The position numbers and the translations under genes are program-made. From the NCBI RefSeq assembly GCF_030384885.1, contig NZ_CP128613.1: a stretch of 64,000 nt of DNA. One strand, written 5' to 3'. The notes below the pieces were generated by a model. That model was not told the origin of the DNA. It was given only the letters and a program-made list of their open reading frames with translations, and ran no database searches. The DNA is from Escherichia coli (GTDB lineage: Bacteria > Pseudomonadota > Gammaproteobacteria > Enterobacterales > Enterobacteriaceae). Positions 12,930 through 54,031 of this stretch are shown here, piece after piece. The first letter of the stretch is position 1, and every line of letters begins with the position of its first letter.

Positions 12930-13080
12930 AACGGGAAAGCCCCTCCCGAGGAAGGGGCCTTAAATAAGGAAAGGGTCATGATGAAGATACTCATCATCGT
13001 GGTGCTCTTAGTCGTTAGCTACCCAGCTTACTAAGACTACCAGGGCGGGGAAAACCCCGCTCTACCCTCACTCCTGAAAA
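12930..13080 (-). ncRNA. sibB: Sib-family antisense sRNA (antitoxin) fully overlapping the ibs ORF
   Basis: In K-12 each ibs is covered by a ~140-nt antisense Sib RNA. On the minus strand the hairpin GCCCCTTCCTCGGGAGGGGC followed by TTTCCCGTTT sits just upstream of the ibs start, consistent with a Sib terminator. Ends are approximate. Confidence 0.5.
12978..13034 (+). CDS. ibsB: Ibs-family type I toxin, 18 aa hydrophobic peptide (MMKILIIVVLLVVSYPAY)
   Basis: ATG ATG AAG start with SD-like AAGGAAAGGG upstream; peptide matches the Ibs pattern MMK-hydrophobic run-S-F/Y-P-A-Y. Symbol assigned only by synteny (copy nearest mdtA) and is uncertain. Confidence 0.7.
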   Translation: MMKILIIVVLLVVSYPAY

Positions 13081-13257
13081 TATGCCTTCACGGTCAGAAT
13101 GTCAATCCGCAGGCTTTGCAGTCTGCGATCCTGCCAGCAAATATTCTTTGCGAGTCGTTACGCAATAATCACAGATGAAACTATTTTATCTACGCGTTAG
13201 CGATAGACTGCATTCAGGGCGAAAGGAGGTAAGCCGATGATTTCAGCGGGACGCTGA

Positions 13258-13408
13258 AACGGGAAAGCCCCTCCCGAGGAAGGGGCCTTAAATAAGGAAA
13301 GGGTCATGATGAAGTGGATCATCATCGTGGTGCTCTTAGTCATTAGCTTACCGGCTTACTAAGACTACCAGGGCGGGGGAAACCCCGCTCAACCCTCACT
13401 CCTGAAAG
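13258..13408 (-). ncRNA. Sib-family antisense sRNA, middle copy
   Basis: Same hairpin plus T-tract arrangement as copy 1 (hairpin at 13267..13286); approximate ends. Confidence 0.45.
13306..13362 (+). CDS. Ibs-family type I toxin, 18 aa (MMKWIIIVVLLVISLPAY), middle copy
   Basis: Same architecture as the first copy within the second repeat unit; the peptide differs at a few positions. Confidence 0.65.
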   Translation: MMKWIIIVVLLVISLPAY

Positions 13409-13585
13409 TATGCCTTCACAATCAGATTGTCAATCCGCAGGCTTTGTAGTCTGCGATCCTGCCAGCAAATATTCTTTGCGAGACGTTACGCAATAATCAC
13501 ATGTGAAACTATTTTATCTGCAAGTTAGCGATAGACTGCTTGCATGGCGAAAGGAGGTAGGCCGCCGATTTCAGCGGGACGCTGA

Positions 13586-13736
13586 AACGGGAAAGCCCCT
13601 TCCGAGGAAGGGGCCTTAAATAAGGAAAGGGTCATGATGAAGCTACTCATCATCGTGGTGCTCTTAGTTATTAGCTGGCCAGCTTACTAAGACTACCAGG
13701 GCGGGGGAAACCCCGCTCTACCCTCACTCCTGAAGT
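13586..13736 (-). ncRNA. sibA: Sib-family antisense sRNA, third copy
   Basis: Hairpin GCCCCTTCCGAGGAAGGGGC at 13595..13614 with T-rich tail on the minus strand; approximate ends. Confidence 0.45.
13634..13690 (+). CDS. ibsA: Ibs-family type I toxin, 18 aa (MMKLLIIVVLLVISWPAY)
   Basis: Third repeat unit, same architecture. Symbol by synteny only (copy nearest yegL), uncertain. Confidence 0.65.
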   Translation: MMKLLIIVVLLVISWPAY

Positions 13737-13907
13737 TATGTTACTCCACCCTTATTGTCAATCTGTAAGTCCACGTTCTTGCGGGGCGAATAGCAAAACC
13801 CTCTGCGCTTATGGGCCGAATTCTGAAAGTTGCTTTGCCTGCTCTTATTTCATTATTGCAGTCGGTATGATACCGGACCTCAATAATTCTCTAAGAAAGG
13901 ATTTCTT

Positions 13908-27736: not shown

Positions 27737-29320
27737 TCACACCTCGTACTCCATCTCGCCATCCTTACGCAGCGGAATAATCTGCACCTTCTGCACGCGA
27801 TGGCTTTCCACCTGCAACGTTTTAAGCAAATAATCCCCCACCTGAACTTCTTCGCCAGGTTTTGGAATACGCTGCAAATATTCCATCAACAGCCCGGCAA
27901 TGGTGTGATATTCACGTTTTTCATCCAGCGGCAGCGGCACATATTGCACCAGATCTTCCAGCGGCATATGACCATTCGCTGTCCATGAACCGTCGGCATT
28001 TTTCTGAATATCATGACGGGCATCGATCTCTTCCACTTCGTTTGGCAAGTTACCTGCAATGGTTTCAGTGACGTCACTTAATGTCACAATCCCTTCCACC
28101 GAGCCAAACTCATCCACCACAAAAGCAAAGTGTGTGCGGGCATTACGGAACTGCTCCAGGGCAGGTAACAACGGTAAAGTTTCCGGGAACACCAGCGGCT
28201 GGCGAATCAACACCCGCAGGTTGAGCGGTTCGCCGCGCAGTGACTGTTGTAACAGGTCGATAACGTGAACAACACCGAGCAAATCTTCTGCATCATCGCC
28301 GTCGGTAACGACCAGACGCGTGTGCTGATTTCGCTCCAGCAGCTGGCGGATCTCCTCTTCCGGCGCGTTGAGATCGATATGCTCAATATCGTGGCGCGAC
28401 GTCATAATGCTGCTGACAGTACGCTGGTTAAGATTAAGTACCCGCTCAATCATCCGCCGTTCCTGCGGATTAAAGATCTGCTGGTTACCATGATCCACCA
28501 GCATGGACGCGGTTTCGGCATCCAGTTCCGCATCTTCTTTTTGCCCGCTTAACAAGCGCATTACCGCTTCGGTAGTCCGCTGGCGCAGCGTCTGGTTAGC
28601 GGAAAGAAAACGTCGCCGGTTAAAGATAGCCAGTTGATTGAGCGCCTCGATCATCACCGAGAAACCAATGGCAGCGTACAGGTAGCCTTTCGGAATGACG
28701 AAGCCGAAACCTTCCGCCACCAGGCTAAAGCCAATCATCAACAGGAAGCTTAGGCAGAGAATAACGATGGTCGGGTGGCTATTAACGAACTGGGTTAACG
28801 GCTTGCTTGCCATCAGCATCAGGCTGATCGCGATAACCACGGCGGCCATCATGACCAGTAAATGGTCGACCATCCCGACGGCGGTAATCACCGAGTCAAG
28901 TGAGAAGATGGCGTCCAGCACCACAATTTGCGTCACCACGCCCCAGAACTTCGCACCTTTGCGTTGTGTGGGGTTATTGCTGTCTTTCCCCTCCAGCCGT
29001 TCGTTCAACTCCATCGTGGCTTTGAACAGCAGGAAGAAACCACCAAACAGCATGATTAAGTCGCGGGCACTAAAGGTAAACGAGCGGAAGCTGAACAGCG
29101 GTTGAGTCAGGGTGACCAGCCAGGAGATTGACGCCAGCAGTAACAGGCGCATTAACATCGCCAGCAGCAGCCCGGTAACCCGTGCGCGGTCGCGCTGCTT
29201 CGGCGGTAGTTTTTCGGCGAGGATGGCAATAAAGACCAGGTTATCAATGCCGAGGACCAGTTCGATCACAATCAGCGTGATTAACCCGGCCCAGATAGAC
29301 GGATCGGCAATCCATTCCAT
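27737..29320 (-). CDS. yegH: YegH, TerC/CBS/CorC-domain inner membrane protein
   Basis: Track ORF 27737..29386(-); start set at [18 protein letters not shown] for 527 aa. TerC-like TM region followed by CBS pair and CorC/TransAssoc C-terminal domain. Confidence 0.88.
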
Positions 29321-29761
29321 AGTAAGTACAAAACCTATTCGTTGTATGACAAATGTCACAATTCGATCATGGATAAATCGGGGCAAAAATGCAATGTTGC
29401 AGCACTATTTATCTCATATAATTTGAGGGTTATAACCTCACATTATCCCTGAATTAAAAGTGGCAATAATAAAACATTATTTAAGAAATATCGCATATGG
29501 AGACACTATATTAATTATTGTCAACCTAAAGAAAGTCCTAAAAAACATATTGATTGACACTTAATATAATTCTTAAAAATAGCCAATTGCCGAATTGTTA
29601 CCTTGCCTGCTATTCCGTTAGCTGTAACACTTCCTCCTGCATTATTGGAAGCCAATATTCAATTACCATAATGCCACCTTATATCTGGAAAATTAATTCA
29701 CGGAATAACGCTTTTTCATAATCGACTGCATGATGAAAGAGTTAGAAAATCTAAACTAAAT

Positions 29762-29800
29762 CAGTGTATTGGTAGCTAAAAAGCCAGGGGCGGTAGCGTG
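29762..29800 (+). promoter_or_regulatory. JUMPstart element with ops (RfaH-dependent antitermination) in the wza leader
   Basis: CAGTGTATTGGTAGCTAAAAAGCCAGGGGCGGTAGCGTG contains the ops core GGCGGTAGCGTG about 180 nt upstream of wza. Confidence 0.85.
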
Positions 29801-29978
29801 TCTGGATGCCTGAAAGACCAGTCTGAATTATTCTGTCAATAGCCTGCGGATGAAATCAATTTTTTTAGGACTGATGCCAGTTAAATTTTTGTTCAATTAA
29901 CTGCAAGGTAAATGTGCATGGCGACATTGCTATTAATAGTGCACAGGATAATTACTCTGCCAAAGTGATAAATAAACA

Positions 29979-31118
29979 ATGATGAAATCCAAAATGAAAT
30001 TGATGCCATTATTGGTGTCAGTAACCTTGATAAGCGGTTGCACAGTACTTCCGGGCAGCAATATGTCGACGATGGGTAAAGACGTCATCAAACAGCAGGA
30101 TGCTGATTTCGATCTCGACAAAATGGTGAATGTTTATCCGCTGACCCCGCGCCTGATTGATCAATTACGCCCACGCCCGAACGTCGCGCGCCCCAATATG
30201 ACGCTGGAAAGCGAGATTGCCAATTATCAATATCGTGTCGGGCCGGGCGACGTTCTTAATGTCACCGTCTGGGATCACCCGGAACTCACCACGCCAGCTG
30301 GTCAGTACCGCAGCTCCAGCGACACCGGCAACTGGGTACAGCCTGACGGCACCATGTTCTACCCGTATATCGGCAAGGTTCACGTAGTGGGGAAAACGCT
30401 CGCTGAAATCCGCAGTGATATTACCGGGCGCTTAGCGACGTACATCGCTGACCCGCAGGTGGACGTTAATATCGCCGCCTTCCGCTCGCAAAAAGCGTAT
30501 ATCTCAGGTCAGGTGAATAAATCCGGTCAACAGGCGATCACCAACGTACCATTGACCATTCTCGACGCCATTAACGCCGCAGGTGGCCTGACCGATACCG
30601 CTGACTGGCGCAACGTGGTGCTAACACACAATGGTCGTGAAGAACGCATTTCTTTGCAGGCGCTGATGCAAAACGGCGACCTCAATCAGAACCGACTGCT
30701 TTATCCTGGCGATATTCTCTACGTGCCGCGTAATGATGATCTGAAAGTATTTGTGATGGGTGAAGTGAAAAAACAGAGCACCCTGAAAATGGACTTTAGC
30801 GGTATGACCCTGACTGAAGCCCTGGGCAATGCTGAAGGCATCGACATGACCACCTCCAACGCCAGCGGCATCTTTGTCATTCGTCCGCTGAAAGGCGAGG
30901 GTGGGCGTAACGGCAAGATCGCCAATATCTACCAACTGGATATGTCCGATGCCACGTCGCTGGTGATGGCGACAGAATTCCGCCTGCAGCCTTATGACGT
31001 GGTGTATGTCACCACCGCCCCGGTTTCCCGCTGGAACCGTCTGATCAATCAGTTGCTGCCAACTATTAGCGGTGTCCGTTACATGACGGATACAGCCAGC
31101 GACATTCATAACTGGTAA
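29979..31118 (+). CDS. wza: Outer membrane polysaccharide export lipoprotein Wza
   Basis: 379 aa; lipoprotein signal [25 protein letters not shown]; first gene of the colanic acid cluster. Confidence 0.95.
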
Positions 31119-44294: not shown

Positions 44295-44395
44295 TAGTTG
44301 AATAATCAACCGGAATAAATCTCCGGTAAATAACGACAAAAACAAAATTGGCCGTTTCGGTCAGGGCCAATTATTGCCTGAAAAAGGGTAACGAT

Positions 44396-53992: not shown

Positions 53993-54031
53993 TAGTGCAC
54001 TGGTAGCTGTTAAGCCAGGGGCGGTAGCGTG
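53993..54031 (+). promoter_or_regulatory. JUMPstart element with ops preceding the O-antigen cluster
   Basis: CTAGTGCACTGGTAGCTGTTAAGCCAGGGGCGGTAGCGTG, ops core GGCGGTAGCGTG, about 100 nt upstream of the first O-antigen gene. Confidence 0.85.

Follow-up and report, generated by a model that had tools for sequence, protein, structure and literature searches.

The RcsAB box, the site bound by RcsA and RcsB, has the consensus TaAGaa followed by tatTCctA, and its right half has been assigned to RcsB (PMC4325325, PMC3950696). Matches were scored here against the 14-bp form TaAGaatatTCctA, in which six positions are strongly conserved (T1, A3, G4, T10, C11, and A14, called capitals below). Functional RcsAB boxes that match at 9 of 14 positions have been accepted only if all of the most conserved positions are kept (PMC4325325). 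RcsB sites usually lie just upstream of the -35 element (PMC5651002), and for RcsB heteromers at other promoters it has been proposed that the RcsB half faces the promoter (PMC3950696). The RcsB homodimer has its own box, TN(G/A)GAN4TC(T/C)NA, and a genome-wide search of Salmonella with this pattern lists matches inside wzc and wcaK and none in the wza promoter (PMC7913699).

The system closest to the one described here is the cps/wza promoter and leader of E. coli K-12, studied by Stout (1996) and by Wehland & Bernhard (2000) according to PMC2478693 and PMC9976346; it is the same locus with the same gene order. For wza, PMC2478693 describes a single upstream promoter with a -10, a -35, and an RcsAB box. 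In K-12, deletion of hns or lon and overexpression of rcsA each raise colanic acid and wza mRNA (PMC9143390). In strain CFT073, H-NS lies over the wza promoter in the wild type, and an RfaH ChIP signal appears in a delta-hns delta-stpA strain at an ops 12-mer located at -190 from wza; the transcription start site of wza is given as NA in that study (Hustmyer et al. 2022, PMC9765446). The Cappable-seq and Kim 2012 start site tables likewise have no entry near wza among the matches listed.

A second relevant system is the rcsA promoter, where two RcsAB boxes lie about 170 bp upstream of the start in AT-rich, H-NS-bound DNA, and where box1 overlaps the YdaT site TGAATTGCCATTAATATA (PMC11879457). 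A third is the class of JUMPstart/ops elements that act with RfaH (RF01707), known from the rfa, rfb, kps, hly, and tra operons.

The window analyzed in this study is a stretch of 64,000 nucleotides of E. coli DNA, in which the region of interest (Table 1) exactly fills the gap between the start codon of yegH (29320-29318, minus strand) and the ATG of wza at 29979. On the 3' side of wza lies the entire colanic-acid cluster (wza to wcaM), followed by galF and the O-antigen cluster. The region is present in 4818 of 5426 complete E. coli genomes. An 801-bp query spanning it matches 4838 of the 5426, and the flanking annotation is always yegH on one side and wza on the other. GC content is 0.27-0.385 across 29300-29999 versus 0.50-0.57 in both flanking genes, which bears out the description, in an initial annotation of the sequence, of an AT-rich stretch of about 660 bp 5' of wza. 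What the region holds is a known system, the usual and previously investigated control DNA of the colanic-acid capsule operon in E. coli. We are nearly certain of this identity taken together with the ops/RfaH component described below.

Table 1. Features of the yegH-wza region, with positions numbered from the first letter of the window.
Feature	Position	Strand	Details
yegH-wza intergenic region	29321..29978	.	658 bp, AT-rich; from the ORF map and the RefSeq annotation of strain 2013C-4282 (99.9% identical)
Candidate divergent yegH promoter	29366..29394	-	Inferred; -35 TTGCAT 29394->29389, 17-bp spacer, -10 CATGAT 29371->29366
Rcs-like box A	29482..29495	+	TAAGAAATATCGCA (TAGGAAATATCGCA in other genera); 9/14, 6/6 capitals
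Block B	29518..29545	+	TTGTCAAC, then Rcs-like box TAAAGAAAGTCCTA (box B, 29527-29540), then AAAAA; 10/14, 5/6 capitals
Block C	29560..29578	.	CTTAATATAATTCTTAAAA; box C, 29562-29575, reads TAATATAATTCTTA (+) or TAAGAATTATATTA (-); in Escherichia it contains TATAAT (29565-29570)
Block D, predicted core sigma-70 promoter	29603..29631	+	-35 TTGCCT 29603-08, 17-bp spacer, extended -10 TG 29623-24, -10 AACACT 29626-31 (AACAAT in other genera)
JUMPstart with ops	29762..29800	+ (non-template strand)	Rfam RF01707, 57.3 bits
Leader blocks E and F	29826..29885	+	E, TATTCTGTCAAT, 29826-38; F, TTTTTAGGACTGATGCCAGTTAAAT, 29862-85; 87-99% conserved
Block G	29941..29978	+	Directly 5' of the wza start (translation-initiation region); 79-99% conserved
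wza, which opens the colanic-acid operon (wza...wcaM)	29979..31118	+	379-aa ORF; annotated as Wza WP_000978094.1 in 2013C-4282

The intergenic allele in the window is rare. It is 99.9% identical to that of strain 2013C-4282 and about 96% (96-97%) identical to those of K-12 and most other E. coli strains, and only 13 of the 5426 E. coli genomes match it at 99% identity or higher. JUMPstart, block C, and block D are identical in K-12 and the window. About 20 of its differences from K-12 concentrate in a 75-bp stretch of the leader (29680-29755), where the window sides with E. whittamii and with a second divergent Escherichia genome rather than with K-12. This pattern suggests that the common E. 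coli allele is derived or that the patch was recombined. Many RefSeq genomes of E. coli (PGAP) also annotate a 49-aa hypothetical protein, WP_162829205.1, antisense over the wza promoter blocks (29521-29670, minus strand). Its ORF lacks a start codon and has an early stop in the window and so is not intact, and the annotation is probably a spurious gene call.

The RF01707 covariance model matches the leader over its full length (model positions 1-38) with an E value of 4e-12, its score standing against a gathering score of 35, and the coordinates are the same as those assigned to JUMPstart/ops in the initial annotation. The accompanying statement that the region ends in this canonical element needs amendment, as the element is present but 178 nt separate JUMPstart from the ATG. 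The ops 12-mer (GGCGGTAGCGTG) occupies 29789-29800 on the plus strand, 190 nt 5' of the ATG of wza, the first gene of the cluster, and is the same 12-mer at the same distance as in CFT073. As in the RF01707 class generally, the 12-mer (ops pattern GGCGGTAGnnTG) lies on the non-template strand, and the operon that follows its leader is long. The wza leader also shares with that class the 38/39-nt JUMPstart and its UGGU/GCCA stem, and nothing about it is unusual.

Across the alignment of the window with 79 Enterobacteriaceae wza loci, 76 of 80 sequences have an ops-like element 186-199 nt 5' of the ATG. Three related species of the Pseudescherichia group (Pseudescherichia vulneris, Escherichia sp. 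ESNIH1, and UBA7338) have lost JUMPstart/ops from the wza leader with a deletion of about 30 nt, and they keep promoter blocks B, C, and D despite this loss. Colanic-acid expression in these three may be independent of RfaH.

Other parts of the window carry additional RNA elements. A second JUMPstart/ops is located at 53993-54031 on the plus strand, between galF and the O-antigen genes (59.2 bits, with GGCGGTAGCGT at 54020-30). An algC RNA motif lies directly 5' of cpsG (44342-44391, plus strand, 73.9 bits), and three tandem Sib antitoxin RNA genes are found on the minus strand at 12963-13105, 13291-13433, and 13619-13761 (Rfam RF00113, 137-139 bits each).

For the comparative analysis, 80 wza loci were fetched from other genera, and the 79 with upstream sequence were aligned with the window over 800 nt 5' of the ATG. 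The resulting alignment of 80 Enterobacteriaceae sequences resolves into sharp conserved blocks separated by spacers that vary freely in sequence while remaining nearly constant in length. The conserved blocks are a yegH-proximal block (29345-29395, 75-94% conserved), box A, blocks B and C, block D (29601-29633), JUMPstart, and leader blocks E, F, and G.

Core promoters were sought by running a sigma-70 log-odds scan on each species and projecting the scores onto the alignment. Block D is the top promoter-like site by a wide margin, with a mean of 10.1 bits and more than 4 bits in 79 of 80 species. Its hexamers are separated by a distance within the 16-18 bp range, and its conservation (95-99%) has the shape of a promoter, including a tight -35, a looser spacer, and a tight extended -10. 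A scan of the window sequence by itself had missed this site because it allowed only stricter hexamers. The sigma-70 scan can also produce false positives on conserved elements, since ops itself scores 6.6 bits. We regard block D as the probable, predicted promoter of wza. If so, transcription would begin near 29638, the leader would be about 340 nt long, and ops would lie at about +150. Boxes A, B, and C would then be centered at about -149.5, -104.5, and -69.5, with fixed spacing. Two other promoter candidates were rejected. One, TTGGAA-16-CATAAT (29645-72), was returned by the single-sequence scan and sits in a stretch that is not conserved. The other, TTGACA at 29554-59 as a -35, arises from a substitution in the 29550-29567 stretch, where the window has TGATTG in place of the TGAATG of K-12; K-12 reads ATGACA at this position, and other genera carry unrelated sequence.

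The left end of the region appears to serve the neighboring gene. The candidate yegH promoter is the best conserved sigma-70-like site on the minus strand, with a mean of 6.4 bits and more than 4 bits in 73 of 76 species. Because this conserved minus-strand promoter is located there, the left end of the supposed wza leader is assigned to yegH. The initial annotation had treated the whole stretch as leader, a description that fits the 3' 340-400 nt, which are likely transcribed, but not the left 100 bp or so, which hold the candidate yegH promoter, or 29480-29635, which is promoter/operator DNA. A perfect palindrome, TGACAAATGTCA, is present at 29347-58 (75-91% conserved) and may be a regulator site for yegH.

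Upstream of block D, we infer three Rcs-like boxes from the alignment, an assignment that, like that of the promoter, is predicted from sequence. Box A is the only 14-mer in the region that carries all six capitals, and its positions are each 70-94% conserved, with a mean match across species of 7.1/14. Box B includes a perfect TCCTA half, which corresponds to the RcsB half of the consensus, and differs by one base from its K-12 version, TAAAGAAACTCCTA, which has C where the window has G. Within block B, TGTCAA is 92-97% and TCCTAAAA is 91-99% conserved, giving the alignment form TTGTCAAyAT-nnnn-AAAATCCTAAAA. The TGTCAA element is the reverse complement of TTGACA, and it was rejected as a minus-strand -35 because no conserved -10 follows it. 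Box B scores at least 9/14 in 72 of 80 species (mean 9.4/14), and in 71 of 77 its distance from the promoter stays constant to within 2 bp. Boxes A and B both combine a consensus match with conservation and are near-canonical in certain genera. The Atlantibacter version of box A, TGAGGATATTCCTA, matches at 12/14 positions, and the Franconibacter version of box B, TGAGGATAATCCTA, has all six capitals. In some genera, then, these two boxes drift toward the RcsAB consensus.

Box C lies in the sequence to which the initial annotation had drawn attention, a near-palindrome around 29558..29580 thought to resemble an RcsAB box. The string TTAATATAATTCTTAAAAAT is indeed found at 29561-29580, and TAATATAATTCTTA matches the consensus at 10/14 positions with 5 of 6 capitals, as does its minus-strand reading TAAGAATTATATTA. 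The symmetry is TTAA-N8-TTAA around a mirror-symmetric AT run, so that the sequence is no true palindrome. Searching the intergenic region for matches of at least 10/14 with at least 5 capitals gives 3 hits versus 0.64 expected from shuffles, which is not significant in DNA this rich in AT (p = 0.06); 2 of the 3 are box C on its two strands, and boxes A and B score as well as it does. The box is taken as real because of its conservation and not because of the match in the window alone. Block C has the consensus CTTAATATTAWTCTTAAAA in the alignment and is among the most conserved blocks (86-100% per position). At the aligned position the box scores at least 9/14 in 77 of 78 species, and the TCTTAAA of block C lies 31-32 bp 5' of the block D -35 in 77 of 77.

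The three boxes share features with each other. In each, a single strong half-site (TAAGA/TAGGA) precedes an A-tract (motif TCYTAAA), and boxes A and C are inverted near-copies 80 bp apart. Of only 8 copies of TCYTAAA in the 64 kb, 4 fall within these 657 bp (boxes A, B, and C and block F), where 0.32 would be expected; the motif was defined after the data had been seen, which makes its p-value optimistic. With respect to the RcsB homodimer box (PMC7913699), boxes A and C of the window match at 7 of the 8 specified positions and box B at 6. None of the window boxes reaches 8/8, and across species a single A-site sequence does so, with no B or C sequence among them.

A similar arrangement is apparent at rcsA, whose operator is likewise AT-rich and H-NS-silenced and has more than one Rcs box, at a spacing of about 34-35 bp. 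The K-12 sequence upstream of rcsA includes TAAGGATTATCCGA followed by AAAAA, with ATTAATATAATTCC about 34 bp further 5'. We take TAAGGATTATCCGA to be the likely rcsA box2, since it matches both the consensus and the rcsA box of Salmonella, and with its AAAAA it resembles box B of wza. The longest word common to the rcsA upstream sequence and the wza region is the 12-mer TTAATATAATTC (p about 0.065), which is found in block C and in the rcsA box1 region, and the C-like form of rcsA box1 is TTAATATWAWTC. This sharing is only marginally significant and so is suggestive, but no proof, of a relationship between rcsA box1 and block C. Counted from the promoter, the two box types come in opposite orders at wza and rcsA, and the likeness to the rcsA boxes is drawn from the K-12 sequence.

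The locations of the boxes permit another view of the promoter, wherein block C is the core promoter, with TATAAT (29565-70) as its -10, a start near 29577, and no -35. Box B, at about -43.5, would act as a class II-type RcsAB/RcsB site next to where a -35 would be, box A would lie at about -88.5, and block D would be a conserved leader element from +25 to +55. The TATAAT is perfect in Escherichia block C, the distance from B to C is fixed at 34-35 bp, and -43.5 is a classic activator position, in keeping with the usual location of RcsB sites (PMC5651002). In addition, the RcsB half of box B (TCCTA) would face the promoter as for other RcsB heteromers (PMC3950696). However, the sigma-70 score at block C is low across species (a mean of 1.8-1.9 bits versus 10.1 for block D), and most genera have TATTAA (also TATTAT) at this position, TATTAA being without the critical final T. 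A promoter at block C also gives no reason for the -35/spacer/-10 shape that conservation takes in block D, and the published wza promoter is described as having both a -10 and a -35 (PMC2478693). We therefore consider a core promoter at block C unlikely and retain block D as the predicted promoter.

A related question is which box corresponds to the one published for K-12. The transcription start of K-12 wza was reportedly mapped by Stout in 1996, and Wehland and Bernhard are said to have footprinted and printed its RcsAB box in 2000. The K-12 box may be TAAAGAAACTCCTA (box B), which lies 5' of block C and some 100 bp ahead of +1, although this placement may be biased by knowledge of the sequence. 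An RcsAB site has also been mapped at Erwinia amsG/amsH. A protein search for these genes and for rcsA promoters of other genera returned close Enterobacteriaceae or E. coli for all of the best 120 matches. Full-text searches covering the box A and box B sequences returned no relevant open paper on either one.

If the initial annotation is taken literally, box C itself would be the box footprinted in K-12. It has the best average match to TaAGaatatTCctA (10.2/14), shows stronger conservation than either A or B, has a perfect TAAGAAT on its minus strand, and carries the 12-mer common to the rcsA box1 region. Nevertheless, G4 is absent on the plus strand and C11 on the minus strand in all 78 species, such that 0 of 78 have all six capitals. 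In contrast, box A has six of six and box B has its perfect RcsB half. The argument from the six conserved positions favors box A as the putative published box. Boxes A and B each represent a tentative candidate for that box, with neither reaching an even chance, and box C is a doubtful one. Whether Rcs proteins bind box C at all is a separate matter on which we consider the chances to be about even. Most likely, it serves as an accessory Rcs-type site within an operator of several boxes rather than as the sole RcsAB box. The box assignment in the initial annotation does not hold as stated, the palindrome being one of three conserved boxes and perhaps part of the core promoter instead, but neither is it refuted, as the palindrome is highly conserved, is a near-inverted copy of box A, and has the 12-mer in common with rcsA.

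Rather unlikely, in our view, is a coincidental Rcs-box likeness of block C with conservation for another factor that recognizes AT sequence, such as IHF/Fis, a prophage regulator resembling YdaT, or H-NS nucleating there: the consensus match of box C is at chance level in AT-rich DNA, H-NS covers the wza promoter in CFT073 (PMC9765446), and the K-12 sequence near block C is close to the rcsA YdaT site, but H-NS sites seldom keep every base over as many as 78 species, the IHF consensus WATCAANNNNTTR is absent by inspection, the TGAAT part of the YdaT-like sequence is not conserved outside Escherichia, and the conserved core of block C is exactly the Rcs half-site plus A-tract common to A, B, and F. 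The YdaT likeness is an observation in its own right. K-12 has TGAATG-n6-AATATA beside block C, which almost equals TGAATT-n6-AATATA, the footprinted site of this Rac prophage regulator in the rcsA promoter.

Downstream of ops, the leader carries conserved blocks E, F, and G. Twelve nucleotides at box B (29534-29545) recur as a perfect inverted copy in block F (29861-29872), 315 nt downstream (AGTCCTAAAAAA / TTTTTTAGGACT), and both arms are conserved across genera. Block F could be a downstream Rcs half-site. RNAalifold analysis of 25 genera revealed no covariation-supported structure in the leader beyond the invariant JUMPstart stems, and at block G it called nothing beyond a 4-bp stem, which lacks compensatory changes. 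As the same analysis found no compensatory pairs, we rejected the idea of a structured riboregulator 3' of ops. A possible hairpin at 29877-29902, CAGTTAA-N12-TTAACTG, was not called by RNAalifold; it shows a compensatory CCGTTA/TAACGG in one species (locus L078) and mismatches in others.

Taken as a whole, it is quite likely that the control region of the colanic-acid operon works in the window as already described for E. coli. The AT-rich promoter region would be silenced by H-NS/StpA, as shown for the CFT073 ortholog. Upon envelope stress, phosphorylated RcsB together with RcsA, as known for K-12, would bind predicted RcsAB-type boxes 5' of the sigma-70 promoter and activate it or counter its silencing, and binding at one or more of the putative sites A, B, and C would activate promoter D. 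RNA polymerase would make a leader of about 340 nt and pause at ops. RfaH, whose binding was demonstrated in CFT073 and is predicted here from the element, would load at this site and carry transcription through the operon of more than 20 kb. The initial annotation had proposed Rcs-activated, RfaH-antiterminated capsule expression, and this agrees with published work, in which the wza ops at -190 is RfaH-bound in CFT073 in the absence of H-NS and StpA (PMC9765446).

A more speculative model, which we hold to be improbable as a complete statement, is that the wza control region forms an array of Rcs half-sites (TCYTAAA) with fixed geometry across Enterobacteriaceae. Boxes A and C would constitute an inverted pair 80 bp apart that encloses box B, block F would repeat B in inverted form about 230 nt into the leader, and block C would be the counterpart of rcsA box1. 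If this is true, an architecture of two boxes (box1/box2) would be common to RcsAB promoters and would work by wrapping or counter-silencing of H-NS, not through a single activator contact.

The region represents textbook Rcs-activated, H-NS-silenced, RfaH-dependent capsule expression, to which the window adds only a rare allele. The footprint across 80 species pins down the likely core promoter and indicates that three Rcs-like boxes, not one, are strongly constrained with fixed spacing. It gives precise targets for dissecting how RcsA and RcsB overcome H-NS at the wza promoter.
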